A DNA stretch of 64,000 nucleotides from Oscillospiraceae bacterium (GCA_015068765.1 SVJY01000005.1:1968-65967); one strand, 5' to 3'; counted from the stretch's first letter, positions 21,852-60,378 are shown. Numbers and translations are program-made. Notes: a model not told the origin generated them from the letters alone.

Positions 21852-21862
21852 GAGAAATACAA

Positions 21863-22630: not shown

Positions 22631-22633
22631 CAA

Positions 22634-22663
22634 AGAAACCCGCCTTTTTCATGGCGGGTTTCT
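22634..22663. terminator. Hairpin AGAAACCCGCC-N8-GGCGGGTTTCT, candidate terminator
   Basis: Perfect 11-bp inverted repeat seen directly, located between the IS remnant and the 3' end of the LacI gene. Confidence 0.4.
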
Positions 22664-22855
22664 TTGCTATCTGAATTGATTTGTTCAACATAAACTACTT
22701 CTTCTCATATACTTTTTCGATAAAATTCGGCTACAATAAAGATAACTAAATTATAATCCTCTACTTTGGATTACAGTACATTCGGTCCATATCGTTCTAT
22801 TTTTCTATATGAAGATTTATCATGCACAGAGGCTTTCCACTGCCGCTTATACGCT

Positions 22856-23836: not shown

Positions 23837-23880
23837 TCCACTTACCTCTCTGTTTATTAAATTATAATGTATTTTTTACC

Positions 23881-23906
23881 AATTTGTCAATAACTATTGA
23901 CAAATT
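23881..23906. promoter_or_regulatory. 26-bp palindrome carrying two back-to-back TTGACA -35 boxes for divergent promoters (LacI gene and the MPE-GH2 operon)
   Basis: AATTTGTCAATA-AC-TATTGACAAATT. On the plus strand TTGACA is followed by 17 nt and then TACTAT. On the minus strand TTGACA is followed by 18 nt and then TATAAT, upstream of the LacI start. Confidence 0.55.
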
Positions 23907-23920
23907 CTTGATTTTATGCT

Positions 23921-23936
23921 ACTATAACGATATAGT
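23921..23936. promoter_or_regulatory. LacI-type operator candidate (16-bp palindrome centred on CG) overlapping the -10/+1 of the plus-strand promoter
   Basis: ACTATAA-CG-ATATAGT. The 18-mer TACTATAACGATATAGTG recurs in the same promoter context at 46483-46501 on the minus strand. A second palindrome, TGACAA-T-TTGTCA, lies at 23936-23948. Confidence 0.55.
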
Positions 23937-23965
23937 GACAATTTGTCAGAAAGGATGCACTTCAT

Positions 23966-32373: not shown

Positions 32374-35307
32374 ATGAAAAAAGGACTCACCCTGCTGCTC
32401 ACAATTGTATTGCTCTTTACAATGTCAGCGGTAAACACCACCGCCGTATCGTTCACCGATACGGAAGGAACAAAATGCGAAACCGCCGTCGGTGTTTTGG
32501 CGGCACTCGGCATTGTAGAAGGTAAATCGGAAGGCGTCTACGAGCCGAACAGCTTGCTCACAAGAGCAGAAATGGCTACAATTATTCTCCGTGCCATGGA
32601 TATGGACGGCGTTACTTTTGGCTGGAACATCTTTACGGACGTTCCCGCAAGTCACTGGGCGTATGCCAATATTGCAGCGGCGTATCAGCTGGGCATTATA
32701 AACGGCACAAGTGCCACTACCTTCGAACCGGATAAAAGCGTTACATACGAGCAGGCTGTAAAAATGGTTGTGGCTGCACTCGGTTACACTGTACAGGCAG
32801 ACGTTTTGGGTGGCTACCCCTCCGGATATCTTTCCAAGGCGGCACAGCTTGACCTTTTAAGAGGTGTAACACAAGGCGGCGAAATGACACGTGGCAATAT
32901 GGCAATTCTGCTCTATAACGCACTGGATACAGAACTATTTTTGCAGTACACCTTCGGCGAAGGTGCCTATGATTTTGAAAGCACCGAAACGAAAACCCTG
33001 CTTTCCTACTACCTGAAGGTAGAAAAGTGGATCGGCGAAATCACCGCCACCCCCATGGCACAGTTTGGGACCGCTTTGGAAGGCCGCAAGCTTTTGGGCG
33101 ATGAGGTTAAAGTGGGTGCCCAGATTATGAAAAAGGGCGAGACAAATGCACAGGATATGCTCGGCATCCGCAGTGACATCTATGCAAAGCGTGAGGATGG
33201 AAGCGAAATTCCTGTCATCTTGGCAATCGTACCCCGTGCAAGTGTAGAAATCATGGATGTCAGAGCACAGGATATTCAGTCCAAAACCGACACAGCAGAA
33301 TTTGTATATCTGGATGCGGCAGGTAAAGAGCAAGAGGTCAGTATTGCCGGTGCGACCTTTATCTACAACGGCCGCCAAGAAACCATGACAAACAACCTGA
33401 TCGTGCCTGAAATCGGAACGGTACGTCTTGTGGCTGAAGGGGGAAACGTGGACCTTGTTATGGTTTGGGAATATGAAAACCATATTGTGGAAAATGTTCT
33501 CTCCACAGAGAATAAGGTTTATTTTGCGGGAAGCGGTACGCCGTCTACGATCATTGATCTTAGTGACAACACCCTTCCCACTGTGATGACCGATGCGAAC
33601 GGAAATGGCGTTACCCTCGACAGCCTTATGCAATGGGATGTGCTTTCGATTGCCGAGAGCCTGCCGTCTAACACAAGCCGCGTTCGCCGCATTTATCGTT
33701 CCAATTCGCAGATTACCGGTGAAATCACCGAAATTATCAGCGGCACAGACGAGGTTGTCATCGGCGAAGATGTCTATTCCGTTGCGGCACCCCTAACGAT
33801 CAGTGACGTAAAGCTTGGGCAGAATGCAGCATATTACCTTGACTTTACAGGTGCTATCGCGGCAATGGATACAAGCTATGATACAAGCCGCATTTACGGA
33901 TGGCTCCAGAATGCAGAAAAGACAAAGGGCTTAAATGGTAAGCCGCAGCTGAAAATCTATACCCAAACCGGCGAATGGAAGGTATTCGATCTTGAGGAAA
34001 CCGTTCGCTTTAACGGACAGGGACGCGACAGTGCTTCCCTTCTGGATGCGACACGTGCAGAGGCGAATATCTGGGGGGATGACGTTGCACCTTCTTTTGT
34101 CGCAATAAACGGGACGGTTGTGCCACAGCTTATTTCCTATAAGACAAACGAGGCAGGTCTGATTACGGAAATTGAAACGGCAGTGAATAAGACCTCTCTT
34201 CTTAAAAAAGATGAAGAAAAATTCGGAGACGAATTCAGCATGGACATCTACCAAAATGATGTAAAACAGGTCCGTGCCTTCAACGGTGAAAAAGAAGGCT
34301 ATATGGATGATGCTTCCTATGTAGACGGTGGTCTGCAGTACCTGGACGGCGTGCTATTTAGTCGTGTGTATGCGAACAAAAACACCATTCTCTTTAAAAT
34401 CCCCAAAGACCCTGCCGTTGAAAGAGGATATAGTGTAGGAGCCGCGAACGTGCAGGGGCTGGCGATGATGGAATATCGCTCTTGGGGCTGTCTCTCCTAC
34501 TATGATATTGATGACAGCAATTTCTGCAAGGTTATGGTTATGCGTAATGACCTTATGTATGGAGATTCCGAAGAGGATACAACGGTGATAACCGCCTATC
34601 CTACCGCCTCTGTACCGGCTGCCATCATTACGAAAATCAGCACCGTTTTAAGCGAGGATGGCGAACCCATGCAAGTACTTAAGCTGGTGAACTGGAGTGG
34701 ACAGGAAATCAACGCTATCCTTACAGATTCTTTAGAGTATTGCTTGTATAAGGCTGCAAATGCAAATTTAACGGAAGACCTTGCTTGGTATACGGAAAAA
34801 GACGAAGACGGAACGAAAATACGCGGTGACTATAAGTATATTACAAATAAACATCAATACCGTAAAGAACTCTTCATGGATCCGGCGGATCTGACTGTCG
34901 GTGATGTCATCCAGTATTCGGTTGACAGTGAAAACAAGCTGACCATGGTATCGGTTGCGCACCGTGCAAACTATTCCGGCAATGTGGAATTTTCCGTAAG
35001 CTCGGGTGAAATTCTGTTACAGGGCACACGTGATAATTTCTATCGTGGCGGCAATTTCTCACTTTGCGGTACCGTAATCAAGGTTCTGAAATCGGGTATT
35101 TTGGTATCGACAAACATTGGCGATATCTTTGGTGACGATTCCCAGTTGGATGCCACCCGTATGCTGCCCACAATCGGTAATTTCTTTATCTGGAACAGTG
35201 AAAAACAGGCCCTGACCCAGTGTACAGCTACAGACTTCCTTCCGGAAGACTATATCTGGGCTTTCTGGGACACATCCGACCAGGAAATGGTTATTGCTTA
35301 CCGCTAA
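32374..35307 (+). CDS. Secreted cell-wall-anchored protein: signal peptide, N-terminal triple SLH domain and ~750-aa body of unknown function (paralog S1)
   Basis: 977 aa. Signal peptide MKKGLTLLLTIVLLFTMSAVNTTA. SLH repeats (FTDTEG...TRAEMATIILRAM; FTDVPASHWAYANIAAAYQLGIINGTS...TYEQAVKMVVAAL; ...TRGNMAILLYNAL). Paralog of 54798-57554. Confidence 0.85.
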   Translation: MKKGLTLLLTIVLLFTMSAVNTTAVSFTDTEGTKCETAVGVLAALGIVEGKSEGVYEPNSLLTRAEMATIILRAMDMDGVTFGWNIFTDVPASHWAYANIAAAYQLGIINGTSATTFEPDKSVTYEQAVKMVVAALGYTVQADVLGGYPSGYLSKAAQLDLLRGVTQGGEMTRGNMAILLYNALDTELFLQYTFGEGAYDFESTETKTLLSYYLKVEKWIGEITATPMAQFGTALEGRKLLGDEVKVGAQIMKKGETNAQDMLGIRSDIYAKREDGSEIPVILAIVPRASVEIMDVRAQDIQSKTDTAEFVYLDAAGKEQEVSIAGATFIYNGRQETMTNNLIVPEIGTVRLVAEGGNVDLVMVWEYENHIVENVLSTENKVYFAGSGTPSTIIDLSDNTLPTVMTDANGNGVTLDSLMQWDVLSIAESLPSNTSRVRRIYRSNSQITGEITEIISGTDEVVIGEDVYSVAAPLTISDVKLGQNAAYYLDFTGAIAAMDTSYDTSRIYGWLQNAEKTKGLNGKPQLKIYTQTGEWKVFDLEETVRFNGQGRDSASLLDATRAEANIWGDDVAPSFVAINGTVVPQLISYKTNEAGLITEIETAVNKTSLLKKDEEKFGDEFSMDIYQNDVKQVRAFNGEKEGYMDDASYVDGGLQYLDGVLFSRVYANKNTILFKIPKDPAVERGYSVGAANVQGLAMMEYRSWGCLSYYDIDDSNFCKVMVMRNDLMYGDSEEDTTVITAYPTASVPAAIITKISTVLSEDGEPMQVLKLVNWSGQEINAILTDSLEYCLYKAANANLTEDLAWYTEKDEDGTKIRGDYKYITNKHQYRKELFMDPADLTVGDVIQYSVDSENKLTMVSVAHRANYSGNVEFSVSSGEILLQGTRDNFYRGGNFSLCGTVIKVLKSGILVSTNIGDIFGDDSQLDATRMLPTIGNFFIWNSEKQALTQCTATDFLPEDYIWAFWDTSDQEMVIAYR

Positions 35308-35480: not shown

Positions 35481-37280
35481 TTATAGGATTTCGCTGGGCG
35501 TTATGCAGTTCTCATAAAAACGAATCAGTGCCGCTTCTTTGAAAGGAAGAACATCTTCCTCCAGCATTTCGATTTTTGCACGTTTGCCCGAAAGATAGTC
35601 CCGGATGACTTCTATTGCATATTCCATTCGATAAACGGTACTTCCGAATCGCGCTACCATAACTTCATACCCAAAGGGTTTATACACCGCTTTCCACTGC
35701 TTTTCAAAAAGACGGTGTAGCTTCCCCACATTTTCAATCACACGAGGCAACAATGTCCCGGCAGCATCCTCAAGATATTTCCTATTATTTTGTAAATACT
35801 TTTCACGCAGAGAAAATCGTAATTCTGCTTTATCTTTCAGAATTTCCAATACGGTAATATAGTACAAATACATTTCTTTATTTTCGTCGTTTTTCTCATG
35901 GGCGGCATATGCCATAGAAAGCGCCGTTTCGATGTCCGGCAGATAATGTGCATCCTCTTCGCCAAGTTCCGGCAACGCATAAAATGCATCGCCGTACAAA
36001 AGCGCATTCAGAAATGTGCGGTGCGGCCTGTCGGTAGGCATACCGTGAGCTTTGGAGAGCTTCAGCAGAAAATCTAAATCCACGCCTGTAAGAGACATTG
36101 CCGTATCATAAATTTCCGCCATGGAACAATCTATACCGCGATAGTTAAGTTCCGAATACAGCGCCAAAAGCGGCACCGCCAGAAAATGATTGGTTTCACA
36201 GCCGTTATCTGCCCACATGGTGGCAAACACTGTCGAAATGTTATTTTTAATTGCCGCGCGAAGGGAAGGAATGGCATTTGCAAATGCCATTTCCGTACGG
36301 GGTACGAAGCCAAACCAAGTCCACAGTCCACCTGCAAAAACTGTTTTTTCCGTAACCCGTTTATGATTTGCCAGCATCCGGTCAAAAAAGTCCTCATCTG
36401 TGCTGTAATAATCCCAGTACACAATTTCCAGTTCCTCCGGCACCAGTTCCTTCGGTACACATGTTTCTGTATCACGATAGGAGTGGGTTTTGGAGGCAAA
36501 ATTATAGAACATATCACTCCAGACCATGGGTTTGTAGGCATACTTTTTGCAGATAGAAACTGTTTTTGCAAGATGCTCTGCAAAAATCGCAAAACGGTCA
36601 TGAAACCCGTTTTCACGCAGGTATTTACCAAGCCCCATATCATGTGCCTCATCCATGCCGATGTGAATACGGTTAGAACGGAAACATCGGCGCATTACCT
36701 TGATACATGCTTCAATAAAGGTATATGTTGCATCACTTCCGATTTTCAAAACACTTGCCGTATCCCGTATGTCACCCGTAATACCGTCATACTTCAGATA
36801 CTGCGCCATGTGACCGAGCGTCTGAATACAAGGAATCACCTCTATGCCGAGTGCATATGCATAATCGTCAATTTCACGAAGTTCCGCTTCGGAATATCTG
36901 CCCCGGAGATACCCGAAGTAGGGATATTCTTTTAGTTCATATGTATCCTCCGTATACAGCATCAGCATATTCATACCGAGTGCCGCCATATACGTCAGAT
37001 ACTTCTTCACCGCTTCCACCTGCATAACGCCATTTCTTGAAACGTCTAACATAACGCCACAGGTTTCAAAAGACGGTTTTTGGCGGATTTCAAAGGCTGT
37101 TTTCCCCTTTCGGATTTCGGAAGCCAGCAAAAAGCATCCCCGGGCAAATGTACTTTCATCCTTTGCACCAATCACGGCATTTTTTCCGTCATAGGATACA
37201 TATACGCCGTCAAATTCTGTTCTTTCAATTTTTCCGTCAAAGGAAAAGTGCAATAATGAAAAAATATTTTTCTGTGTCAT
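35481..37280 (-). CDS. GH20 beta-N-acetylhexosaminidase (GcnA-like, cytoplasmic)
   Basis: 599 aa with no signal peptide. CGVMLDVSRNG..., LMLYTEDTYE, IPCIQTLGHM and the catalytic D-E pair in RIHIGMDEAHDMG. Confidence 0.85.
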   Translation of the reverse strand: MTQKNIFSLLHFSFDGKIERTEFDGVYVSYDGKNAVIGAKDESTFARGCFLLASEIRKGKTAFEIRQKPSFETCGVMLDVSRNGVMQVEAVKKYLTYMAALGMNMLMLYTEDTYELKEYPYFGYLRGRYSEAELREIDDYAYALGIEVIPCIQTLGHMAQYLKYDGITGDIRDTASVLKIGSDATYTFIEACIKVMRRCFRSNRIHIGMDEAHDMGLGKYLRENGFHDRFAIFAEHLAKTVSICKKYAYKPMVWSDMFYNFASKTHSYRDTETCVPKELVPEELEIVYWDYYSTDEDFFDRMLANHKRVTEKTVFAGGLWTWFGFVPRTEMAFANAIPSLRAAIKNNISTVFATMWADNGCETNHFLAVPLLALYSELNYRGIDCSMAEIYDTAMSLTGVDLDFLLKLSKAHGMPTDRPHRTFLNALLYGDAFYALPELGEEDAHYLPDIETALSMAYAAHEKNDENKEMYLYYITVLEILKDKAELRFSLREKYLQNNRKYLEDAAGTLLPRVIENVGKLHRLFEKQWKAVYKPFGYEVMVARFGSTVYRMEYAIEVIRDYLSGKRAKIEMLEEDVLPFKEAALIRFYENCITPSEIL

Positions 37281-37339
37281 ACTAAATTCTCCTGCTTTTA
37301 TTTGATTCTGTTTACATCTGTTTTCTTTTCTATTGTATT

Positions 37340-37395
37340 ACAAAAACAAGGCTGTCACGAAATGCGGCTTTTACTGCATTGTTTTGTGACAACCT
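37340..37395 (-). terminator. Rho-independent terminator after surface protein P1
   Basis: Minus strand reads AGGTTGTCACAAAA-N19-TTTCGTGACAGCCT followed by TGTTTTTGT. It starts 20 nt after the P1 stop. Confidence 0.55.
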
Positions 37396-37414
37396 GTAAA
37401 CATCATATTAAGGT

Positions 37415-40400
37415 CTATTCTCTGCGAAGCACATAAGCTACAGAGCATGGTTCCATAGCATTCCATTCCATTCCCACCATGTAAACATTCCCTTCTACCG
37501 GTCTTTCTTCATTCTCCATAATAATTGAAAGCAACTCTTTCACGCCGTTTTGTTCCGTATATACTGCTATAAATGCACGACCGTTATTTGATGCACTATA
37601 TAACGTATACGCCGTAGTCGGTATCGTGTGCCAGCGGACGTTATCGGAATAAAGTCCGGTCGTTTTCTCTGTCGAAATCTTGCAATATACCACTTCGCCC
37701 GGTAGCACGGTTACGGTTATTACATTATTTGAAAAACTTACACGAGTAGGATTCGTGCCTGCCAACGCCGTAACTGCATCACCGTTGACGGAAGCCGTAA
37801 ATGTTTCCGCCTCCGCGGCTCCGTTTGCAAAAAGATAATGTGTACAATCTGTTTCTTTCTGCGTTGCGTACCAGAATGTGTCAGATTGCCACACTCCATC
37901 CGAAAAAGCAAGATTAAAAACAGCTCCCTGTTCCTCTTTAGTCAGATGGGCGACATCAAACGATACATCTGGTTTTCCTGTATTCCAAGCGAGAATACGG
38001 TCCATCAAAACCGCCGCTTCCGCACGCGTTGTATTGGCAAGTGGTTCGATGGTTCCGTCCGCATTTCCGCGTACGATGTTACTGCGTACCAACGCTGCAA
38101 CATTCGCCACAACGTAATCTGCCACTAACTCGTCATCGGAGAAATTACGCAGATATGTTTCTGGCTCACCTTCTTCCAGTGCACGAACAAGACGCATACC
38201 GCGTGCACAAATCACCATTAAGTCCCGCCGGGAAATTTCCTCGGCAGGGAAGAAGTTCGTACCGTCTGTTCCTTTCAGAATACCAAGTGCCTTACCGATT
38301 GCGATTTCTTTTGCATAATACGCATTCGGGTCTACATCGGCAAACAGCTCCGTAGCATTGCTTGTAAGCCCCAGCGTGCGAATAAGGAACATGGCAAAAT
38401 CGCCTCTTGTTATTTTTTCATTAGGTGCATAGGATGCCGCCGTTTTACCAACTACAATCCCTTTGTTTTCCAAACGTCGAATCTGTTCTGCCGCCCAAGG
38501 GTAACTTTGCAGGTCTCTGAATTTTGTTGTATACAAATCCGAAAAATCAAGTGCTGTGCTCGATGTAATTTCATACACAAGTGCCGCATTGGGGGCAAGC
38601 GTTACGTCCAGTATTTCCCCATTGCCGCTTACCGAACCGCTTCCGCCGTATTTCAGAACGCCTGTATAACCGTTTATACGAACAGTACCGCCGTCGCTGA
38701 CAAGGGGAATGGAAACCGCCTGTTGCGTGTTCTTGCGATTTACAACAATCACGTTAATTTTGTTATTCTTAATATAGGACGTCCATAGGACATCACTGCC
38801 CCAAAAGCTGTTAAATATAGGATATTTCCGGCGTAGGAAGACGTCATAGGACTCCTCCATCTCTGCCTTTGCAAATTCCACAAGTCCCGGCCATAGCGGA
38901 GATGCATTTAAATCAAGTACATTGCCTTCTGCATCGGTATAGGCATCATAGAAGCAATAAAAACCGTTTCCGGTACTGCCTGCCATCAGGGATTCATACC
39001 ACATATTTCTTTCATCCATAATACTGGGGAAATACGTGCCTTCTAAATATGCCTGATTCAGGCACAGTGCCGGTTTATGATAATGAGAGCCCTGTGCCGC
39101 ACGCATGGAATACGTACCGACTTTCTGCAAATTATCCGGTGTGCCCGGATAGGGATCAATCAGAATCATATCCGTATATTTACCGTACCGCTCGTAATCG
39201 CTTACTGAATTTTGCGTCATCGTGACGGGGTGCTTTTTATCAATATCACGAATCAGCTTATAGGTGTCATAGAATAAATCCCAAGCATTCGGAAAATGCA
39301 GGGAAGGCTCATCCATAACAATCCAGCCTAAAAGGGCAGGATGGTCACACAGCTCCGAAACAACACGCTTTGTATTTTCATAATTGTCCGGATGTCCTGC
39401 AGGCTTCATGTCACCATACATACGGGCAAGCACCATAATCCCCTGTGCCTGTGCCGCATCCAGAAACGCTTCCAGCGGTGCCGTACTCTGCACAGTGTTT
39501 ACGCCGATTTCTTTCATGTACACAAGCTCACTTGCACGCACATGGTATGCAAATGTCGGATAAAATGGCTCGCCGTCCTTGCGTAAGGTTCCGTCCTCTG
39601 CCAGCATTGTAGGTCTTGCATACCGGGAAATCTTATCGGTTTCACTCCCGACCTTATTGCCGTCAGCATCGTAAATGGTGGCTGTCAGCTTATAGTCCTT
39701 GCCCTCTGTCGCCATCAGTCCCGGATCAAAATTCCATGTGGTTACGCCCTCCGAAATCTGACCGGAGCCGGATGCCAGAAGAGTCTCCGCCTCATCCCGA
39801 AGCGCAAAATCGACATAACCGCATGCAAGCTCCGGATGCTTTACTAAATCCGCTTCCGCAGTCGCAATACCCGTTTCCATATCCGAATAGTAAAATACTT
39901 CATCGGTACGAAGTGCAACCGGCCGATCCGGTGCCAGTTCTATCTGATAGAAGGAAACATCATCAAAATATGCCGTTCCGGGCGCAAAAATACGAACATA
40001 AAACATTACGAACGCCACACCTTTACAGGGCGGCTCGTAGTTTGCACAAAACTGCACCCATTCGCCGCTTGTGTATCCCGACTTATGTACCGAATAGCCG
40101 CCTAAGGGGTTCCCTTCTGCATCATAGCTTTCAAACTTACAGCCAACCGTATCAACCTCACCCTTATACCAAAAGTTTGCCTGAAATACGGCACCCTCTT
40201 CAAAAGTCGAACTGATGATTTGCTGTTTGCACCAAGGCAAATTGGTCTCTGTTGTCGTAATTTTCAGAGACCGACTTTCTGTATGGGCAACATCCGTTGT
40301 CACAGAAATATTTGTATTACCATTCCAGCTTTTACCATAAGGCGACCAATCGGAAGCAACGGGCAAAATACCTTCTTCAAAGCTATTGTTATCCAGCAAT

Positions 40401-41047
40401 TCCTCGGCAAAATCCGGCATTTCGACAAACGAAGACGTCTCATCATCTTCCTCCGGAAGCTCACCTTCCCCCATAACCGAAACCATATCCCAGAGGATTG
40501 CGCCGGAAGTGCCGGCGATACGTACCATCAGGGTTGTTTTCGCTGTCCCCGTCGGCGCCGTGAACACCTTGGATACAACTGTCCATGTATTCACCGTCAC
40601 ATCAGAAAATGGTGCACTGATTGCTTTTATCTGGGTACCGTTTACATCGTAGAAGGTTAATTTAATAGACCCTGCGGAATCCTTTTTCAGAATTTTCAGG
40701 GCGCCGCTGAAAGTATACTCGTTTCCGGGTGTTAAGGGGTGTAAGGTCTGCGAAAGCCATGCCGCTGCCGTCTCTGTTTTGTAGCGTGCGGCTTTCGTTC
40801 CGTCATATACGTCCGTATCTTCCCGGAAAAACTCTACGCCCATGGTGCCGCCCTTCGCATCCCAACTGTTCGGAAAACCGATACTGCCCCATTCTTCAAA
40901 GCTTCCGTTTTTCACGAAATTATGTACGTCGGACTGCAACACAGTCGTTTCTGCGCTGACCACAGGGCATGAAAGGGACGTTACGAAAAGCAGTACGCAC
41001 AGTATCCGTACATATACGCAATTTATTTTTTTAACTGTAGTACACAT
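37415..41047 (-). CDS. Giant modular surface protein P1: signal peptide, 2 CBM4_9-like modules, Ig-like linker, unassigned TIM-barrel-like (clan GH-A-like) domain, beta-sandwich, triple SLH, ~190-aa C-terminal tail
   Basis: 1210 aa. Signal peptide ends ...CPVVSA. CBM-like modules at aa ~40-195 and ~215-370 (NGSFEEW..., NNSFEEG...). Central domain at aa ~478-745 (nt ~38813-39616) with HPALLGWIVMDEPS, ILIDPYPGTPD and LNQAYLEGTYFP. SLH triplet at aa ~843-1021 (nt ~37985-38521). Confidence 0.8.
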   Translation of the reverse strand: MCTTVKKINCVYVRILCVLLFVTSLSCPVVSAETTVLQSDVHNFVKNGSFEEWGSIGFPNSWDAKGGTMGVEFFREDTDVYDGTKAARYKTETAAAWLSQTLHPLTPGNEYTFSGALKILKKDSAGSIKLTFYDVNGTQIKAISAPFSDVTVNTWTVVSKVFTAPTGTAKTTLMVRIAGTSGAILWDMVSVMGEGELPEEDDETSSFVEMPDFAEELLDNNSFEEGILPVASDWSPYGKSWNGNTNISVTTDVAHTESRSLKITTTETNLPWCKQQIISSTFEEGAVFQANFWYKGEVDTVGCKFESYDAEGNPLGGYSVHKSGYTSGEWVQFCANYEPPCKGVAFVMFYVRIFAPGTAYFDDVSFYQIELAPDRPVALRTDEVFYYSDMETGIATAEADLVKHPELACGYVDFALRDEAETLLASGSGQISEGVTTWNFDPGLMATEGKDYKLTATIYDADGNKVGSETDKISRYARPTMLAEDGTLRKDGEPFYPTFAYHVRASELVYMKEIGVNTVQSTAPLEAFLDAAQAQGIMVLARMYGDMKPAGHPDNYENTKRVVSELCDHPALLGWIVMDEPSLHFPNAWDLFYDTYKLIRDIDKKHPVTMTQNSVSDYERYGKYTDMILIDPYPGTPDNLQKVGTYSMRAAQGSHYHKPALCLNQAYLEGTYFPSIMDERNMWYESLMAGSTGNGFYCFYDAYTDAEGNVLDLNASPLWPGLVEFAKAEMEESYDVFLRRKYPIFNSFWGSDVLWTSYIKNNKINVIVVNRKNTQQAVSIPLVSDGGTVRINGYTGVLKYGGSGSVSGNGEILDVTLAPNAALVYEITSSTALDFSDLYTTKFRDLQSYPWAAEQIRRLENKGIVVGKTAASYAPNEKITRGDFAMFLIRTLGLTSNATELFADVDPNAYYAKEIAIGKALGILKGTDGTNFFPAEEISRRDLMVICARGMRLVRALEEGEPETYLRNFSDDELVADYVVANVAALVRSNIVRGNADGTIEPLANTTRAEAAVLMDRILAWNTGKPDVSFDVAHLTKEEQGAVFNLAFSDGVWQSDTFWYATQKETDCTHYLFANGAAEAETFTASVNGDAVTALAGTNPTRVSFSNNVITVTVLPGEVVYCKISTEKTTGLYSDNVRWHTIPTTAYTLYSASNNGRAFIAVYTEQNGVKELLSIIMENEERPVEGNVYMVGMEWNAMEPCSVAYVLRRE

Positions 41048-41067
41048 CTACGCTTCCTTTCTCAACC

Positions 41068-41111
41068 CTAAAAACCAGGGACTGTTTAAATTTGACTTTT
41101 TAAACAGTCCC
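41068..41111 (-). terminator. Rho-independent terminator between P2 and P1
   Basis: Minus strand reads GGGACTGTTTAAA-N8-TTTAAACAGTCCC followed by TGGTTTTTAG. It lies only ~20 nt upstream of the P1 start (RBS AAAGGAAG). Confidence 0.6.
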
Positions 41112-41119
41112 ACGCTTTC

Positions 41120-44100
41120 TTACTTACTCCAATTGAGAATACGATCCATAACAACTGCCGCTTCGGCACGGGTCGTATTTCCACGAGGGTTGACAGTGCC
41201 ATCTGCATTGCCTTTTACAATGTTGCCGCGTACCATCGCCGCAACATCTGCCGTGGCATAATCGGCAATCAGCTGATTATCCGAAAAGCTTTGCAGATAT
41301 GTGGCAGCATCGCCTTCCTCCAGTGCACGAACAAGACGCATGCCGCGTGCACAAATTACCATCAGATCCTGACGGGAAATTTCCGCTTCGGGATTGTAGT
41401 TTACACCGTCTGTTCCTTTCAGAATGCCGAGTGCTTTACCGATTGCAATTTCCTTCGCATAATACGCATTCGGGTCAACGTCGGCAAACAGCTCTGTCGC
41501 ATCGCTTGTAAGACCCAGCGTGCGAATTAAGAACATGGCGAAATCACCTCTTGTAATCTTCTTCTCCGGTGCATAGGACGCCGCCGTCATATCGTTGACA
41601 ATGCCTTTATTCTCAAGACGTCTGATTTGTTCTGCCGCCCATGGATAATCCTGTAAATCTCTGTATTTCGTTGCGTAGAGACCGGAGAAATCCGTTGCCG
41701 TATTGGGCGTGATTTCATATACAAGTGCCGCATTGGGGGCAAGGGTCAGGTCTAAGGTGCTTCCGGCAGAGGCAACTGTGCCGCTCCCGCCGTATTTCAC
41801 ATTTGCAGTAAAGCCGGTAATGCTGACTGTGCCGCCGTCACTCACAAGGGGAATGGACACGCTATCCTCCACATTATTGGGATTTATAACAATAATGCTG
41901 ACCTTGCCGTCTTTTACATATGCCGTCCAGATTGGTACATCTGTTTTCCAGAAGCTGCTGAAAATCGGATACTTTTGTTTTAAGAACAGGTCATACGATT
42001 CCTGCATTTCTGCATTCTTAAATTCCACCATACCCGGCCAGATGTCCGATTCGTTCAAATCGATTACATTGCCGTTTTCATCCTTTGTAGCATCATAGAA
42101 TGCATAAAAGCCGTTTGAAGTGGAACCGGCCATCAGAGCCTGATACCAGAGGTTTCGTACATCCATAAGTGTCGGGAAATACGTGCCTTCCAGATATGTC
42201 TGATTCAGAACCATGTTTCCCTTATGATAATGGGAAGCCTGTGCGGCTCTTCTTGCATAATTCCCGACCTTCTGCAGTTTGTCAGGTGACCCCGGATACG
42301 GGTCCAGTGCAACAATGTCCACATATTTGCCGAATTCCTCATAATAATCGGGTGCACACTGAATCATAAAGACCGGGTGCAGCGGATCAATATCACGCAC
42401 CAGCTTGTAGGTATCATAGAAAAGATCCCAGTGGTTCGGGAATTTCAAGGACGGTTCATCCATAACTGCCCATGCAAGCAGTGCCGGATGATTCCAAAGC
42501 TCTGAAATAACACGTTTAGAGTTTTCGTAGTTATCCGGGTGCCCCGCAGGCTTCATGTCCGGATATATGCGGGCAACAACCTTAATGCCGTGTTTTTCCG
42601 CTTCGTCCAGGTATTCCTTGAGCGGTGCTACGCTCTGGGTGGTATTCACGCCGATTTCCGCCATAAAGCCGAGCTCTGTGGCACGTACATGCCATGCGAA
42701 TACGGGATAAAACGGCTCGCCGTCTATCACAAACTGCCCGTCCGGCGTCATCATTTCCGGCCGTTTGTATCGGCAAATTCGTTGTGTTTCCGTACCGACC
42801 ATATTTCCCGCCGCATCATAGATCGTGGCGGTAATAGTGTAATCCTGTCCCTCTTCCGTCATCTGCCTCGGATCAAACTTCCATGTAGCCGCCCCGTCTG
42901 CCAGAGGTGCAGAACCGGAAGACAGTACGACACCGCTCGGGTCCTGCATCTGAAAGTCCACACGGCCACCTTCTTTGAGTGCAGGGAATTTCTTCGTGTC
43001 TGCCGCACCCGTTGCAATGCCTTCCGTCATATCCGTATAGAAGAATACCTCGTTTGTGGAAAGATGAACCGGGCGTACCGGTGCTTCTTCAATCATATAG
43101 AAAGAAACATCGTCAAAGTACGCTTCGCCGGGTGCAAAAATACGAACGTAGAACATGACCTTTGCACATTCCGAAGGCGGGGAGAAGGTTTTAACAAACC
43201 GTTTCCATTCGCCGCCTGTGTATCCGTCCATGTGTCCCGATGCACCGCCCATATAGTTGCCGTCTGCATCGTACCATTCAAATTTACAGCCAACCGTTGC
43301 CACTTCGCCCTTAAACCAGTAGCTTGCCTGGTATACGGCATTCGGATCGAAATTTTCTCCTGCCACAAGCTGTTTTGTCCAGGGCAGGTTTTCAAGCGTT
43401 GTAGTAATACGCAGGGCACGGCTTCCGTCTCTTCCCGCCCCCTCAACTACAGATGCAAATCGATTATCCACCCAGGTTTTCGGGTCTCTGTCATCAAACG
43501 GCGACCAGTTTGTCACCGCGGGTAAATTTCCTTCTTCAAATCCACCGTTTGTGAGAAGCTCCCGTGAAAATGCAGGCATTTCCACAAATGCAGCCTCCGC
43601 TTCCGGCTCCGGCAGTTCCCCTTCGCCCATAACGGAAATTTTATCCCATAAAACGGTCGCAATCTCCGTATCTGTTTCGCCCGGCGTAACCGAAGGTAAA
43701 CGCACCTGAACGACTGTCTGCGTCGTATTCTCCGGTACTGTGAAGGTCGTGTAGACCTCTGTCCACTTATTAACCTCCGCATCCGGGAAGGCCTTGTTGA
43801 TTTTCTTTAGCTCTATTTTATCTACATCGTAGTGAATGATTACAATAGAACCGCCGGCATTCTTCGTCAAAGGCTTCAGCATACCGCTGAAGGCATATGT
43901 ATTGCCCACCGTCAGCGGATACACGGTTTGCGAAAGCCACACGCTCCCTTCGGCCTTTTTAAACTTCAGTGCCCTGGTACCGTCAGCTGTGTCGCTTTCC
44001 TCCATGAAGATTTCCTTGTTCATCTCGCCGCCTTTTGCGGCCCATTCGCTGGGCAGACCAATGCCGCCCCATGCTTCAAAGCTACCGTTTTTGACAAATT

Positions 44101-44734
44101 CGAGACCGGTGGCCTGCAGCTGTGCCACTTGTTCCTTTTCTTCCGCTTCCGGATCATAATCGGAAACCTCGCCCGTGAGCGAAACGTCATCCCAGTAGAT
44201 TTCTTCGTCCGTACCGCCGGAAACACGCAGAAGGAAGGATGCCCACACTGTATCCTCCGGCACCGTGAAGCTGTATTTTACCTCGCTCCATTTCCCCAGC
44301 GGTGTGTCGGCAAAGTTTGCAGCAGCACGGGAGAGTGCCTGGCCGTTTTCGTCCATAAAGTCAACAGTAATTCTGCCACCCTGTCCGCTTCTTTTTACCG
44401 GCAGAAGGAAGGCACGGAACGTATACATTTTTCCGCCAACCAATCTGTCCAGACGTTGGGAAAGATAGGCACTGCTTTCGTTCGTCTTAAGCCCTGCCGC
44501 CTTCTCTCCGCCGTGGGCATTTTCCGTTTCCATAATTAAGTTTTTGCCGAAGGTGCCGCCCTTAAAGCCCCAATGGGCGGGTGGCGCGCCAAGAGACCAG
44601 TTTTCAAAATCGCCGTTTTTCAGATGTTCCCCAGCTTCAGCACTTACCGACATTCCTATCAGTATACTGCTCATCATAAGTGTGCACAAAAGGAACGCCA
44701 GGATGCGGGTGAGTCTTTTTGTCATAGCTACCAT
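41120..44734 (-). CDS. Giant modular surface protein P2: signal peptide, 3 CBM4_9-like modules, unassigned TIM-barrel-like domain, C-terminal triple SLH
   Basis: 1204 aa, paralog of P1 with an extra N-terminal CBM-like module (NGDFENW..., NGSFEAW..., NGGFEEG...). Central motifs HPALLAWAVMDEPS, VALDPYPGSPD and LNQTYLEGTYFP. The SLH triplet is the last 181 aa (nt 41123-41665). GGGGGA RBS. 13-nt gap to the upstream gene. Confidence 0.8.
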   Translation of the reverse strand: MVAMTKRLTRILAFLLCTLMMSSILIGMSVSAEAGEHLKNGDFENWSLGAPPAHWGFKGGTFGKNLIMETENAHGGEKAAGLKTNESSAYLSQRLDRLVGGKMYTFRAFLLPVKRSGQGGRITVDFMDENGQALSRAAANFADTPLGKWSEVKYSFTVPEDTVWASFLLRVSGGTDEEIYWDDVSLTGEVSDYDPEAEEKEQVAQLQATGLEFVKNGSFEAWGGIGLPSEWAAKGGEMNKEIFMEESDTADGTRALKFKKAEGSVWLSQTVYPLTVGNTYAFSGMLKPLTKNAGGSIVIIHYDVDKIELKKINKAFPDAEVNKWTEVYTTFTVPENTTQTVVQVRLPSVTPGETDTEIATVLWDKISVMGEGELPEPEAEAAFVEMPAFSRELLTNGGFEEGNLPAVTNWSPFDDRDPKTWVDNRFASVVEGAGRDGSRALRITTTLENLPWTKQLVAGENFDPNAVYQASYWFKGEVATVGCKFEWYDADGNYMGGASGHMDGYTGGEWKRFVKTFSPPSECAKVMFYVRIFAPGEAYFDDVSFYMIEEAPVRPVHLSTNEVFFYTDMTEGIATGAADTKKFPALKEGGRVDFQMQDPSGVVLSSGSAPLADGAATWKFDPRQMTEEGQDYTITATIYDAAGNMVGTETQRICRYKRPEMMTPDGQFVIDGEPFYPVFAWHVRATELGFMAEIGVNTTQSVAPLKEYLDEAEKHGIKVVARIYPDMKPAGHPDNYENSKRVISELWNHPALLAWAVMDEPSLKFPNHWDLFYDTYKLVRDIDPLHPVFMIQCAPDYYEEFGKYVDIVALDPYPGSPDKLQKVGNYARRAAQASHYHKGNMVLNQTYLEGTYFPTLMDVRNLWYQALMAGSTSNGFYAFYDATKDENGNVIDLNESDIWPGMVEFKNAEMQESYDLFLKQKYPIFSSFWKTDVPIWTAYVKDGKVSIIVINPNNVEDSVSIPLVSDGGTVSITGFTANVKYGGSGTVASAGSTLDLTLAPNAALVYEITPNTATDFSGLYATKYRDLQDYPWAAEQIRRLENKGIVNDMTAASYAPEKKITRGDFAMFLIRTLGLTSDATELFADVDPNAYYAKEIAIGKALGILKGTDGVNYNPEAEISRQDLMVICARGMRLVRALEEGDAATYLQSFSDNQLIADYATADVAAMVRGNIVKGNADGTVNPRGNTTRAEAAVVMDRILNWSK

Positions 44735-44747
44735 ACGGTTTCCCCCT

Positions 44748-46337
44748 TTACTTTACGGGAATAATGAATTTTTCTGTCACGTTCATGTCCGCAATGTTGT
44801 CAAACAGGAGTGCAGTGACCGTAATATCGCCTTCTGATTTGGAAGGTACATTTACCGTAAGTTCATACTCCTGCGGCAGAATGCAAAGCGGAGAAGGTGT
44901 AAAACTTGCACTTTCTGCAAAGGTAACTGCTCCGGCAGGTGCTGCGGAAATAATGTCAACATCCTTCAAGCTCTTTACCGTGCCTTTCTTTGCATAGACC
45001 GCCAGAAAAACATCCATCGTTTCCGTGCATAGTGTCTTCGGTACGTAGTGTACAACCACTTTACCTTCTTCACCGGCCGTAAGTGCTTCTACCTGTGTGC
45101 CGGCAGCATTATAAAGCTTCACTTCCGTATAATCTTCTTCTAAAATAACATTGTCATAGCAGAATTCTGCAAATGTTGTCCCGTCTGCAAGCTTACCGTT
45201 GCCGTCACCCTGCAGGTATAATACGACATTTAATGTGTCGTCATCCGCCGTTGCAGGTGTTGTGAAGTATACTGTGTAGTCCGTCCATGTACCTGGAGTT
45301 GCATCCGCAAGCTTCATTTCTGTCTTATTATAGTAAGATTTTGTACCATCCTTTGTACTTGTTACACTTCTGTCGCCAAAGTCGCTGAAGGTAGGCGCAT
45401 ATCTGAAACCGCTCTGGCTGTACTCAACCGATGTTTTTCTTTCCGCAGTTTCTCCTAACGGCGTGTAATATTCTATGAAAGTCACACAAGGTCTTGCATA
45501 TCCTGCGGTTACGGAAGTCGTCCGAAATTTAAAAGAAAGTCTATACTGCGTGGAAGGCTTCAGTCCCACAAGGGTCTGCTGTGCGGCCGGCATACGTTTT
45601 ACGGATACATCATTGGGAACAAGACGAACAAATGCATTCCCGTTTTCAACGGCAACTTCCTCAAGTGCGCCGTTGTCGTTGGTTCCCCAAGTCCAGCCTG
45701 CCGGTGCCGTCGCAAGAGACTCGGCATCATAGCCTTCAAAATCATAGTTTGCCACCTTGTTAGTATTGAAGCTCATATTTGCAATTTCCATTGCAGAACC
45801 GGCGCGAACGTTCAGCTTTATGGCTACGTGGCTTGCAGTTTTATAAATACCCTTTTCCTCTAACTCTGCCACATCCTTCGTAAAGTAATCCGGTATGGCA
45901 ATCGTCGTTGCATAAGTTTGCCAGTTCCCTGTTCCCTCTGCGCAGGAAATGGTTACGTATCCTTTAGAATTAACATATGAGCTGATATCCACTGCTTTTC
46001 CACCATTTTCCTCACTGTTTACATGATACACATACAAACGAATAGAACGAACTGCACCCGTTGCTTTATACCGGAAAGAGAGTGAATACGTTTCTCCTGC
46101 TTCCAAGTTGCCTGCAATCGGCGTATTAAAAGCGGTATCTTGCACTATTTTCATATAGCTGCCATCAAATCCCTGGGGCGGTGCATAGCCTTCGCTGTCA
46201 GGCGTCACTTCTATAATCGCTGTGCCGTCTGCCAAATCCGAAGGACTGATGACCTCTTCCGCCGCGGCACCCATACCAAGACTTGCAAACATGCAGATGC
46301 AAAGCAATAAGCCTACTGTTTTCCTAAATCCTTTCAT
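44748..46337 (-). CDS. Secreted protein made only of CBM-like jelly-roll modules plus a C-terminal Ig-like domain, with no anchor; first gene of the P2/P1 operon
   Basis: 529 aa. Signal peptide MKGFRKTVGLLLCICMFASLGMGAAA. Two modules have the N.DFEG...W pattern. AGGAGG RBS. Confidence 0.7.
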   Translation of the reverse strand: MKGFRKTVGLLLCICMFASLGMGAAAEEVISPSDLADGTAIIEVTPDSEGYAPPQGFDGSYMKIVQDTAFNTPIAGNLEAGETYSLSFRYKATGAVRSIRLYVYHVNSEENGGKAVDISSYVNSKGYVTISCAEGTGNWQTYATTIAIPDYFTKDVAELEEKGIYKTASHVAIKLNVRAGSAMEIANMSFNTNKVANYDFEGYDAESLATAPAGWTWGTNDNGALEEVAVENGNAFVRLVPNDVSVKRMPAAQQTLVGLKPSTQYRLSFKFRTTSVTAGYARPCVTFIEYYTPLGETAERKTSVEYSQSGFRYAPTFSDFGDRSVTSTKDGTKSYYNKTEMKLADATPGTWTDYTVYFTTPATADDDTLNVVLYLQGDGNGKLADGTTFAEFCYDNVILEEDYTEVKLYNAAGTQVEALTAGEEGKVVVHYVPKTLCTETMDVFLAVYAKKGTVKSLKDVDIISAAPAGAVTFAESASFTPSPLCILPQEYELTVNVPSKSEGDITVTALLFDNIADMNVTEKFIIPVK

Positions 46338-54797: not shown

Positions 54798-57554
54798 TTA
54801 TCTATAAACAATTGTCATGAGCGGCGTATAGGTTCTTGCCATAAATAATATTTTATCCCCAATCTCCACGTCTTCCTTGGAGATGGCCTCCACGCTGTTC
54901 TTTTGTTTATCAAACAAATATATCAGATTTGTATAATACATAGTGGATTTTACGCTTATATCCGATGCCTTATCCAGCTGTGCATCATACAGATTTACAT
55001 TTGCCATGAATCCGTATTTTGTGAAATCACAGACTTCGCCGTAGGACATAAGTCTATCACTGTAATTTTTAAGAACTGTGGTGGGCTTTATGGTCCCAAG
55101 CAGGGAGTCTTTTTCGTAATTTGCCGGATAATGACCCCGGAACAGAACACAGAGCTGCACTGCCCAATTATTGGAATCCACGACATAGTATATCACGTCG
55201 CCCGGTTCTATATCCTGTATGCCTATCCTTGCCGGTCTTACGCCGCCTACACAAACCGGATCCTTACTACGATCTGTAGCTGCTTCACCGAACAGAACCT
55301 CAAAATCGTTGTCAGCCGTTACTGTCAGGCTACCGCCGCCCTCCGGCCGGAGAACAAGTTTCGATATGCTCCCCCCTGTGCTTTCATCCAGAGCGGTGGA
55401 TACACTTTCCACAAGAGCCAGTTTTGTCCCCGATATCATATACTCGGTGACGTCTCTTTCGTCCCTTCTGTCCCAGACTAGTACGGAAACCACCTCATCC
55501 TCTCCAATATCATAAAGTGCGATATCGTCATAGATTTCGGTGCCGTCCGTTCCGTGTTTCATCGAATCCCAGCTTTTTGTGTAGTAATCCTTTTCTTCAC
55601 CGGAACCCGGCAGAACAAAGATAACCGTTTCACTCCGGACGAGCCAGTTTCTTCCGAAGGCTTTCATATTGCCACCGATGAAGATTGTGTACTCATCCGT
55701 TCCGTTGTCCAGCTTGTAGCCCGGCTTAATGTATGCATCAAGGCTGAAATCCTCTACTCTGTTTGGACTATTAAAATTATGTCTATAGTCTGTTGCTGTT
55801 TCAACAGAAGAAATCTTTTCGCCGTTTTTCTCATATTTGATGAGCTGCTCGAGGATTACGCCACCGCTTTTCAGCGGACTTGTATCTGCCAGAATTTCTG
55901 CCGCATCCCCATCATGTCCGTTTAGCGTCACCTTATCCATACAGTCCAGTACTTCAACCTTACCCTCATGGGTGAAAAGCCGAAGTTGCGGACGGGAATC
56001 AAGTCCCTTTGTCATGGCGGCATTCAAAAGCCAAGCATAATATGCCGTCGCGGCAGTATCGGTATTCACCGCCGCAACATGACCGAACATGTCAAGGGAA
56101 AATGCCGCCTCTGTTCCAAGTCGAGGCATCTCAAAATCGGGTATCTCTATCAGGCTTTTTGCCACAGGATACTCTGTTTCTCCTATCGTGACAGAATCCA
56201 CAGAAATTTCCGAAAGCGTTCCCGTTACAATGTTGCTTGTTAAAACTACTTTTCTATATTTTCCGTTTGCACTTTCTGCCAAGGAAAGTACATCCCATTC
56301 CTTGCATGCGCTTATATCTGCCGCCGTTCCGTCAGAAAGTGTAAACACAGTGGGAATCGTATTATTGAATGAAATACTTCTCTCCGGCGTGCGGTTTTCA
56401 AGCACGGCAACCGTCATCCTAGAACTTGCAACCCGTTCAACAACGTAGTTTTCATAGCTTTCCACGATAACATATTCTACGCTTCCGCCTTTAGAAATCA
56501 GCTTCACGCTTCCCGTTTCCGGCTGAAGCGCCGCCGCAGAGGGCGTCCGGGGCTCGCCGTTTACAATCACCTGTGCGCCTTGGATGGAGATTCTCTCTGT
56601 TTTCGCATCGCGCTCAAAGCAGAACGTGTTGCCGGTTGTCTCCGCTAAAATTTCGTGGCTATGCACCGTTTCGACCGTGGACTTAGAAGTTAAAGCCAGC
56701 ATGGAAAGGCTACCGTCCGCCTCTTCCTTTACGTAAGCCACAATATGTTCACCGAGTCTTTTGTCTGCATCTGTCGCACCGATGGCTATCGTTTGCCCGC
56801 TTAGCACAACCTCATCCGTGCGAAGGCTTCTTCCCGGTGCGGCAATTTCCTGTGCATAGGTTGCCGTAACCACGCCTTCCATAAGCTTTATGTGCAGATA
56901 ATATGAAAGCGGCGTACGAAGTGCGTCCTCTTCAAATGTATAAGAATCATCACCGTAGCTTGTAGGCTTCAGCATTTCCGTATCCAGTGCATTGTAGAGA
57001 AGCATCGACATATCACCGCGGCATAATTCTCCGCCGCCGATTTCGTCCACGCCATTTAAAATTCCCAGCTGCACGGCACAGCTTACGTAGCCTGCCGGAT
57101 AACCGCCTGCAGCTTCCGCCTTTACGGTATATCCAAGAAGATTTATGACCATTTTGATGGCTTGCTCTCCCGTCACCGGTGCATCCGGCATAAACTCCGT
57201 TTCACTTACGCCATGTATAATGCCGAGACTATACGCTGTCGTAACATAGTAGTACGCCCAATGCTCGTACGGGACATCCGCAAAGCAGTCCCGTTCCTCC
57301 GCCCAGTCCTCGATTCCCATCATGCGGACGATCATTGCAACCATCTCCGCACGGGTAACATTTCCGGGTGCGTCAAATTCTCCGTTTTCCCGTCCTTCTA
57401 CGATACCAAGATTATAAAGCACCGAAACGGCCTTTTCATATTTTGTGCCTGCAACATCCTCAACGGTTGCTGCAAAGGGAGAAATACTGCTGACGGTGGT
57501 GCAGAAAAGCACCACTGCCAAAAGTATGCTCCAAAAAATCTTGTTTATTCTCAT
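54798..57554 (-). CDS. Secreted cell-wall-anchored protein S2: signal peptide, N-terminal triple SLH and ~750-aa unknown body (paralog of S1)
   Basis: The track ORF runs to 57713, overlapping P3. I start it at MRINKIFWSILLAVVLFCTTV (ATG ending at 57554), which gives a proper signal peptide with a GGGGA RBS. SLH repeats follow. The body aligns with S1 (LLYNALDTE..., LSYYL..., C-terminal ...VYR). Confidence 0.8.
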   Translation of the reverse strand: MRINKIFWSILLAVVLFCTTVSSISPFAATVEDVAGTKYEKAVSVLYNLGIVEGRENGEFDAPGNVTRAEMVAMIVRMMGIEDWAEERDCFADVPYEHWAYYYVTTAYSLGIIHGVSETEFMPDAPVTGEQAIKMVINLLGYTVKAEAAGGYPAGYVSCAVQLGILNGVDEIGGGELCRGDMSMLLYNALDTEMLKPTSYGDDSYTFEEDALRTPLSYYLHIKLMEGVVTATYAQEIAAPGRSLRTDEVVLSGQTIAIGATDADKRLGEHIVAYVKEEADGSLSMLALTSKSTVETVHSHEILAETTGNTFCFERDAKTERISIQGAQVIVNGEPRTPSAAALQPETGSVKLISKGGSVEYVIVESYENYVVERVASSRMTVAVLENRTPERSISFNNTIPTVFTLSDGTAADISACKEWDVLSLAESANGKYRKVVLTSNIVTGTLSEISVDSVTIGETEYPVAKSLIEIPDFEMPRLGTEAAFSLDMFGHVAAVNTDTAATAYYAWLLNAAMTKGLDSRPQLRLFTHEGKVEVLDCMDKVTLNGHDGDAAEILADTSPLKSGGVILEQLIKYEKNGEKISSVETATDYRHNFNSPNRVEDFSLDAYIKPGYKLDNGTDEYTIFIGGNMKAFGRNWLVRSETVIFVLPGSGEEKDYYTKSWDSMKHGTDGTEIYDDIALYDIGEDEVVSVLVWDRRDERDVTEYMISGTKLALVESVSTALDESTGGSISKLVLRPEGGGSLTVTADNDFEVLFGEAATDRSKDPVCVGGVRPARIGIQDIEPGDVIYYVVDSNNWAVQLCVLFRGHYPANYEKDSLLGTIKPTTVLKNYSDRLMSYGEVCDFTKYGFMANVNLYDAQLDKASDISVKSTMYYTNLIYLFDKQKNSVEAISKEDVEIGDKILFMARTYTPLMTIVYR

Positions 57555-57660
57555 TGCTTCAGTCCCCATTTTAAAGATAATATAGTACGTACTTTTTCCG
57601 TGTTTACCTTTTTTCTTTTCCCTTCGCTTTTTATACCGGCCTGCCGTCCTATGAAAAGGC

Positions 57661-60336: not shown

Positions 60337-60378
60337 ATATGCATTCCTTTCAAAGTGTTCCATATATTTATCGTTAAT

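Follow-up and report, generated by a model that had tools for sequence, protein, structure and literature searches.

What does a cell-surface protein do when the barrel at its centre resembles known glycoside hydrolases (GHs) in fold and fits none of their families? The question is raised by two tandem genes in a 64,000-nucleotide stretch of DNA from an Oscillospiraceae bacterium (GCA_015068765.1 SVJY01000005.1:1968-65967), which is referred to as the window. Both genes lie on the minus strand, and their open reading frames (ORFs), 37415-41047 for P1 (1210 amino acids, aa) and 41120-44734 for P2 (1204 aa), have the boundaries assigned by an earlier reading of the sequence alone. That sequence-only reading described tandem paralogues of about 1,200 aa in which a core of unrecognised family lies between carbohydrate-binding modules (CBMs) and a triplet of S-layer homology (SLH) repeats, and the ORFs, Pfam and the 63% identity of P1 and P2 across 1000 aa bear this description out. 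The core is related to clan GH-A at the level of the clan, but it belongs to none of the families compared. It belongs to a large family, without a characterised member found in this analysis, that appears to have lost the usual GH-A nucleophile.

The core was taken as P1 aa 473-831, which comprises the barrel and a following β-sandwich. Pfam gives no match above threshold between the CBM and SLH modules of P1 and P2; GH42 (PF02449) is sub-threshold on the P1 core (E = 0.036, 13.8 bits vs a cut-off of 21). NCBIfam gives far sub-threshold matches only, e.g. to β-glucuronidase (14-18 bits, cut-off 544). When P1, P2 and their relatives were scanned, no Pfam or NCBIfam family was above threshold for the barrel and no PDB family claimed it, in keeping with the earlier description of the family as unrecognised. 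In a PDB sequence search the single core gave weak matches only, at E = 2.5e-4 for GH2 β-glucuronidases and at E = 1.7e-3 for GH158, and both alignments place the VMDEPS motif on the N-E-P acid/base strand. The family profile matched PDB sequences of GH158 (2.5e-13), GH2 (6e-10) and GH42 (9e-8), the GH158 alignment being restricted to positions 32-167, which correspond to β1-β6.

An AlphaFold2 model of the core, built from a 21-sequence alignment, shows a β/α barrel of eight strands and, after it, a β-sandwich (predicted local distance difference test, pLDDT, 94.8; predicted template modelling score, pTM, 0.93). Foldseek of this core against the PDB returned generic barrel-plus-sandwich glycosidases only, at 10-15% identity. 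The barrel modelled by itself (pLDDT 94.2) gave a top 50 made up entirely of clan GH-A structures (GH2 β-glucuronidases and β-galacturonidases, GH158, GH157 and GH5; TMq 0.56-0.69, identity 12-19%), and no GH20, GH18, GH84 or GH123 structure was among these 50. The GH-A-like TIM barrel suggested from the sequence is thus supported by the model and by every barrel neighbour. The outcome that would have made the core ordinary, a confident assignment to an established family whose catalytic residues are conserved, was not found. We read the core as a probable descendant of clan GH-A whose nearest relatives are GH2 β-glucuronidases, GH158, GH157 and GH42. Its unclassified status holds only against Pfam (2025), NCBIfam (2026), the PDB (2026) and the searchable literature, and CAZy families with neither a Pfam nor a PDB representative lie outside the comparison, e.g. 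GH111 (keratanase II, an endo-β-N-acetylglucosaminidase).

Measured against the features that define clan GH-A, the barrel is half familiar. Eight β/α units are present in the AlphaFold2 models, and Glu580 follows strand 572-579, at the C-terminal end of β4 where the acid/base Glu is expected. As far as aligned sequences can tell, the barrel fails to provide two defining catalytic features of the clan: the residue directly before the acid/base is Asp instead of Asn in 250/250 relatives, and position 664, at the end of β7 where the nucleophile Glu is expected, is Asn in P1 and P2.

The relatives came from an exhaustive profile search over 1.84 billion cluster representatives (clusters at 50% identity), which returned 6709 proteins at E≤1e-3, of which 3421 reach E≤1e-10 and 452 reach E≤1e-30. 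It was this search that revealed the family; a word-indexed protein search with the P1 core found a single relative, and a genome-collection scan with the P1 core alone found no match. Search patterns were derived from a 7-sequence alignment, the 21-sequence alignment being too diverse. P2 itself, though not among the results of the word-indexed search, is in the representative library as an identical sequence (P0002). The best matches are mostly proteins of 800-1800 aa with the core in the middle, and a second branch consists of stand-alone proteins of about 400 aa from Hydrogenedentota, Armatimonadota, Victivallales and others. Close relatives come from genomes of uncultured Clostridia and Oscillospiraceae of animal guts, and the nearest are about 50% identical in the core. 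The public names, for those members that have one, are “S-layer homology domain-containing protein” or “hypothetical protein”, and a few distant members are called “beta-galactosidase”. Uncultured gut Clostridia and Oscillospiraceae have the family in many copies: a 27-kb part of the window contains four members, and one genome from goat rectum has five or more.

Conservation was counted in 133 close-set cores and 117 distant-set proteins (P1 numbering). Asp579, at the end of β4, is found in all of them (133/133 and 117/117), and Glu580, which follows it, in 248/250 (133/133 close, 115/117 distant). Asp626 at the start of β6 is kept in 133/133 close and 114/117 distant sequences, and after β6 the corresponding counts are 131/133 and 113/117 for Asp631 and 133/133 and 115/117 for Tyr633. 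The GH2 and GH158 alignments lay Asp579 on the Asn and Glu580 on the acid/base Glu of N-E-P, in agreement with the earlier proposal that VMDEPS is this strand with Asp replacing Asn. An hhalign comparison with the GH2 of the window likewise pairs D with N and E with E on β4, in an alignment that is unreliable around β7.

The β7 position can be located through GH42. An alignment anchored on both sides matches P659...N664-Q665 to P302...E307-Q308 of 3TTS (‘LMEQ’), and the Glu of this ‘MEQ’ motif is presumably the GH42 nucleophile. DSSP assigns residues 660-665 of the AlphaFold2 model to strand β7. At column 664, P1, P2 and their nearest relatives have Asn. Other sequences have L, V, I, C, G or A there, and just 3/133 close-set sequences have an acidic residue; Gln665 is kept in 102/133 close and 114/117 distant sequences. 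The sequence-only reading had called the nucleophile Glu ambiguous. It was right that no clear Glu is present, but the ambiguity gives way, since the position of the GH42 nucleophile can be identified and is non-acidic family-wide. In these alignments the family signature consists of Asp-Glu on β4 and Asp-x-Tyr on β6, together with a β7 Gln that is preceded by a residue other than Asp or Glu. The Asn-Glu of β4 appears to have turned into Asp-Glu and the β7 nucleophile Glu appears to have been lost. One usual catalytic residue is apparently missing, and an unusual way of working is therefore suggested.

A missing canonical nucleophile in proteins rich in binding modules could also mean that the barrel is catalytically dead and acts at the cell surface as a glycan-binding or scaffolding domain. 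This seems very improbable, as Asp-Glu, Asp626, Asp631 and Tyr633 are conserved across 250 sequences from several phyla. The family moreover shows one substitution pattern throughout, not scattered losses, and many of its members are stand-alone secreted barrels of about 400 aa.

Another carboxylate might instead have taken over from the β7 Glu. The protein would then be a clan GH-A-type hydrolase of other specificity (β-glucan, galactan, mannan or uronide), either with Asp631 on β6 as nucleophile or as an inverting enzyme with Glu580 as acid and Asp631 or Asp626 as base. The closest structures and profiles, those of β-glucanases and β-glucuronidases, are in line with such an enzyme, as are CBM4_9 modules, which are typical of glucanases and xylanases, and the invariant acids Asp626, Asp631 and Asp603. 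However, counterparts of Asp626 and Asp631 are present in GH42 (DVVSWDNY) and GH2 (VDV..NRY), and they are not obvious replacement nucleophiles because these families, with the same acids, still use the β7 Glu. No compensating conserved acid that is absent from classical GH42 and GH2 was found in the 250 relatives. This explanation also leaves the replacement of Asn by an invariant Asp and the recurrent GH20 partner described below without a reason, and we regard it as unlikely.

In clan GH-A, the Asn that precedes the acid/base is in contact with the C2 substituent of the sugar in the -1 subsite. Families GH18, GH20, GH84 and GH123 act by neighbouring-group participation of the acetamido group. 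Against this background, the reading that we favour, at somewhat less than an even chance, is that P1 and P2 are retaining hydrolases that employ the substrate's 2-acetamido group as nucleophile and cut a polymer containing β-linked N-acetylhexosamine (HexNAc) at the cell surface. Glu580 would serve as general acid/base, and Asp579 would orient and polarise the 2-acetamido group. This group would attack C1 to give an oxazolinium intermediate, with retention of configuration, and Tyr633 would help to hold the acetamido group or the intermediate. The enzymes would cleave, in the endo-acting mode that we infer, a polymer containing β-N-acetylglucosamine (β-GlcNAc) or β-N-acetylgalactosamine (β-GalNAc) outside the cell, and the fragments would be imported and then trimmed by the co-located cytoplasmic GH20. 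A D-E motif together with substrate-assisted catalysis is documented, residue roles included, for GH123-like enzymes (PMC11087588).

Put more broadly, and tentatively, the family may be a new GH family in which a GH-A barrel dropped its β7 nucleophile, exchanged the C2-contacting Asn for Asp and came to catalyse through the C2 substituent of the substrate, by way of an acetamido group and oxazolinium or, less likely, of a hydroxyl group and a 1,2-anhydro sugar. No other GH-A-derived lineage is known to us to have made such a switch; no literature on a GH-A-derived family with substrate-assisted catalysis was found. The hydroxyl variant corresponds to the 1,2-anhydro-sugar intermediate proposed for GH99 endo-α-mannosidases, and we know of no other family for which this mechanism has been proposed. 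Asp579 would here be the base acting on O2, and α-mannan, or another 1,2-trans glycan, would be the substrate. An Asp at the O2-binding Asn position of GH-A, with no enzymic nucleophile, is what this variant would predict; the operon of two further family members includes a GH38 α-mannosidase, a GH63-like gene lies nearby, and one family member has a weak Pfam match to GH99 (E = 0.007). That match is sub-threshold and confined to 1/21 sequences, however, and the GH20 association of the P1/P2 clade favours HexNAc, which makes participation of the 2-hydroxyl improbable.

Several observations weigh against the HexNAc reading as well. The placement of Asp579, Glu580, Asn664 and Tyr633 relative to the pocket is taken from strand positions and alignments only. 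A Glu stands at position 665 in 10/133 relatives, and position 612, at the end of β5, is Glu or Asp in 110/133 close-set sequences and Gln in P1 and P2; in the distant branch it is hydrophobic. CBM4_9 modules are best known as binders of β-glucan and xylan, not of HexNAc polymers, and uronides and β-glucans are the substrates of the closest structural relatives. The link to GH20 is confined to the P1/P2-like clade, whereas the operon of the other two family members in the window has the GH38 α-mannosidase, and the neighbourhoods of distant members are unrelated. A hairpin and T-run separate P1 from the GH20 gene and leave their co-transcription uncertain. Finally, hhalign gives the core a probability of 0.3% against the GH20 of the window; the similarity to GH20 would be convergent because no relation is seen in this comparison.

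The GH20 gene in question (35481-37280, minus strand) begins 134 nt downstream of P1 and encodes a GH20C-type β-N-acetylhexosaminidase with no signal peptide. Family members have a GH20 gene within 10 kb both in the window and in loci L001/L015, L002, L005/L018, L006 and L007, where the partners are P1/P2-clade members. Three GH20 subfamilies of 599, 479 and 702 aa are involved. The two other types (L015, L018) match the GH20 of the window over no more than short segments, at 25% over 185 aa and 57% over 28 aa, and phmmer comparisons among the three give E values of 1e-6 to 1e-10. A signal peptide is absent from all three, and each has a G-x-D-E motif. The position of the GH20 gene differs between loci, with one recurrent order of GH20, a CBM protein of about 520 aa and two family members. 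Functional coupling explains this better than inherited synteny because three GH20 subfamilies recur in varied positions beside family members. The CBM protein of the window is a secreted CBM4_9 protein of 529 aa (44748-46337, minus strand). Its gene lies upstream of P2, and the 13-nt gap before the P2 start contains an AGGGGGA ribosome-binding site. A similar secreted, CBM4_9-only gene product of about 520 aa is encoded at the same position in L005 (3059-4555) and L018 (8324-9877), and this protein may be a glycan-capturing partner.

Two intergenic elements bear on how these genes are expressed. Between P2 and P1, a terminator-like hairpin with a 13-bp stem and an 8-nt loop is followed by a U-run (41068-41111, minus strand; stem-loop 41111-41078, then UGGUUUUU). 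Its folding energy is -23.9 kcal/mol (z = -4.9 vs shuffles), and it lies 17 nt upstream of the P1 ribosome-binding site AAAGGAAG (41053-41060, minus strand). The terminator that the sequence-only reading had placed about 20 nt before this site is therefore present as a hairpin, and an intrinsic terminator or a stabiliser is a credible assignment for it; graded expression of P1 by read-through can only be inferred from its terminator-like form. In the spacer between P1 and GH20 (37281-37414, minus strand), a nested hairpin (GTCAC..AATGC..GCATT..GTGAC) is followed by TTGTTTTTG. It was missed by a minus-strand terminator scan, the T-run beginning 4 nt past the stem, and this hairpin with TTGTTTTTG is the reason why co-transcription of P1 and GH20 is uncertain.

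The architecture of both proteins is that of secreted, SLH-tethered proteins with several CBMs, and we read them as probable polysaccharide hydrolases. P1 (37415-41047, minus strand) has the order signal peptide, two CBM4_9 modules, Ig-like domain, barrel, β-sandwich, three SLH repeats and a 187-aa tail, and P2 (41120-44734, minus strand) has a signal peptide, three CBM4_9 modules, Ig-like domain, barrel, β-sandwich and three SLH repeats. Pfam agrees with the counts of two and three jelly rolls given by the sequence-only reading, with PF02018 above its gathering score (55.8 bits in P1 and 82 bits in P2, cut-off 25.9). The additional N-terminal module of P2 is another copy of the first CBM, as comparison with P1 shows. 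PF00395 passes the Pfam threshold with three stretches in each protein (E = 3e-24 in P1, 7e-22 in P2). Both N-termini resemble Sec signal peptides ending in ..VSA|E, as judged by eye and not by a predictor, in line with the signal peptides proposed earlier. The motifs quoted there were all located, as HPALLGWIVMDEPS, DPYPGTPD and LNQAYLEGTYFP in P1 and as HPALLAWAVMDEPS, DPYPGSPD and LNQTYLEGTYFP in P2.

All segments of P1 lie on the minus strand. The signal peptide (aa 1-32, ending ..VVSA; 40952-41047) was read by eye. It is followed by CBM4_9 module 1 (aa ~43-190, approximate bounds; 40478-40921; PF02018 E = 8e-15), CBM4_9-like module 2 (aa ~215-367, approximate bounds; 39947-40405) and an Ig-like linker domain (aa ~372-470; 39638-39934), a weak assignment based on sub-threshold Invasin_D3 and FxLYD matches. 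The (β/α)8 barrel occupies aa 473-745 (38813-39631); within it, the codons of Asp579-Glu580 at the end of β4 are at 39308-39313 and those of Asn664-Gln665 at the end of β7 at 39053-39058. In the AlphaFold2 model the C-terminal β-sandwich (aa 746-831; 38555-38812) is packed on the barrel. The SLH triplet (aa ~840-1022; 37982-38530) precedes the C-terminal tail (aa 1024-1210; 37418-37978). The corresponding segments of P2, also on the minus strand, are three CBM4_9 modules (aa ~37-185, 212-375 and 392-545; 43100-44626; Pfam E = 7e-23), the (β/α)8 barrel (aa 653-926; 41957-42778) with Asp759-Glu760 at 42455-42460, the β-sandwich (aa 927-1012; 41699-41956) and the SLH triplet (41126-41677). A tail beyond the SLH triplet had been called unusual in the sequence-only reading. 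The tail is indeed there, with no match in Pfam or the PDB, but it recurs at the C-termini of a few other family members (an L001 ORF, P0022 and P0036) and is therefore a genuine extra module, rare rather than anomalous.

The earlier count of two paralogues also needs extension. P1 and P2 are real, but the window holds four family members when scanned with a hidden Markov model of the family, which adds ORFs at 57661-60363 (E = 7e-117) and 60379-63837 (E = 4e-115), both on the minus strand. P3, of 900 aa, has its core at aa 322-689 (58297-59400), the motif VSDEPY and three SLH repeats. P4, of 1152 aa, has one CBM4_9 module, its core at aa 317-684 (61786-62889), the motif VADEPY and no SLH repeats. 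Both have Glu at position 612 and Leu-His at 664-665, and they belong to a subclade other than that of P1 and P2. In related loci, family members as a rule stand in adjacent pairs. P3 and P4 head an operon with genes for an SLH protein of about 975 aa, a DegT aminotransferase, a metallophosphoesterase, the GH38 α-mannosidase, and a sugar isomerase and kinase.

Two genes of the window, at 32374-35307 (plus strand) and 54798-57713 (minus strand), encode proteins of about 975 aa in which SLH repeats, at the N-terminus, are all that can be recognised; the two are paralogues with 32% identity over about 980 aa. The SLH part alone finds matches in the PDB. An orthologue is encoded at L018 193-3123, upstream of a cluster of GH20, CBM and family-member genes, and at L012 9026-14161 one ORF of 1712 aa fuses a family core with a domain of this SLH-protein type. 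These occurrences suggest a functional partnership between the ~975-aa SLH proteins and family members.

The whole window is a dense glycan-utilisation island. Further poorly annotated putative glycosidases are encoded at 3999-6080, 11740-14781, 14808-15827 and 15847-18054; among them are one protein with GHL6 and GH42M, one DUF6259 carrier, a 1013-aa protein with a sub-threshold GH106 match and a 339-aa ORF with no Pfam match. The GC fraction is 0.36-0.375 at 18001-24000 vs about 0.45-0.51 elsewhere, and this stretch, which contains ROK kinase, GH63-like, Fic and LacI genes and a 193-aa ORF, may be a separately acquired segment. In another genome, the contig of P0165 (L022) encodes a distant member of about 400 aa along with α-L-fucosidase, GHL6, GH36, two heparinase II/III-like and GH123-type genes, and looks like a host-glycan or glycosaminoglycan locus.

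The family comprises at least 452 clusters (50% identity) at E≤1e-30 and thousands at weaker thresholds, and in public records these go under uninformative names. Because so many copies carry such names, a substantial glycan-degrading capacity of gut microbiomes is invisible to annotation. If the catalytic signature can be taken at face value, a GH-A enzyme would have shifted from an enzymic nucleophile to participation of the substrate, and two glycosidase classes usually kept apart would thereby be connected. It would also point to a surface enzyme system, widespread among uncultured gut Clostridia, with a HexNAc-containing polymer as its target. The family is a candidate new CAZy family, and a possible source of endo-acting, HexNAc-cleaving enzymes for glycan analysis and transglycosylation.

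Comparison with known families places the core among several without fitting it to one. For GH185 and GH163 (DUF4838), no Pfam match was found in the core. GH148 is represented by EngU, a clan GH-A enzyme with weak similarity to GH42, a CBM4 inserted in the barrel and the motifs INNEN and VTEYN (PMC5725463); this description sets P1 apart from it, as the barrel of P1 is uninterrupted, has MDEP and lacks the nucleophile. GH42 β-galactosidases (3tts) align over β6-β8 as D..DxY, P....xQ and R..YQA, and faint PF02449 matches occur in some distant family members. They were rejected because the core match stays below the cut-off, no GH42M or GH42C is present, and where GH42 has the nucleophile Glu of ‘MEQ’ the P1/P2 family has Asn, Leu or a small residue. 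GH158 endo-β-1,3-glucanases (9oro, 6pal) are the best sequence-profile match and have a similar barrel and C-terminal β-domain, but the alignment ends at β6, identity is about 15%, and GH158 has N-E (GNESEL) where P1 has MDEPS.

The best structural neighbours are the GH2 β-glucuronidases and β-galacturonidases (6u7j, 4jkk, 3hn3; Foldseek E = 1e-12, TMq 0.63-0.66), which share VMDEPS ~ VANEPA on β4, D..DPY ~ VDV..NRY on β6 and the module order of jelly roll, Ig-like domain and barrel. They differ in that the P1/P2 family, at 14-19% identity, has Asp-Glu, no β7 nucleophile Glu and an extra C-terminal β-sandwich. PF02836 (GH2_C) is unmatched in P1 and P2 and reaches only E≥2.9e-4 in 6/21 relatives, and neither GH2_N nor Glyco_hydro_2 is matched. 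GH20 and GH123 offer a functional analogy only, with Asp next to Glu where a barrel strand ends, a conserved Tyr and no enzymic nucleophile, whereas the domain order is another, the β-sandwich of the P1/P2 family being C-terminal. GH20 was rejected as a family placement for want of a PF00728 match, besides the negligible hhalign probability. GH123 and related β-N-acetylgalactosaminidase groups, whose β-sandwich is N-terminal, have the D-E motif alone in common with the core, and PF13320 (DUF4091/GH123_cat) is not matched even at E≤10. Set beside these systems, the fold of the core is known, and what is new is a large, unannotated, glycosidase-like family with an altered catalytic apparatus.

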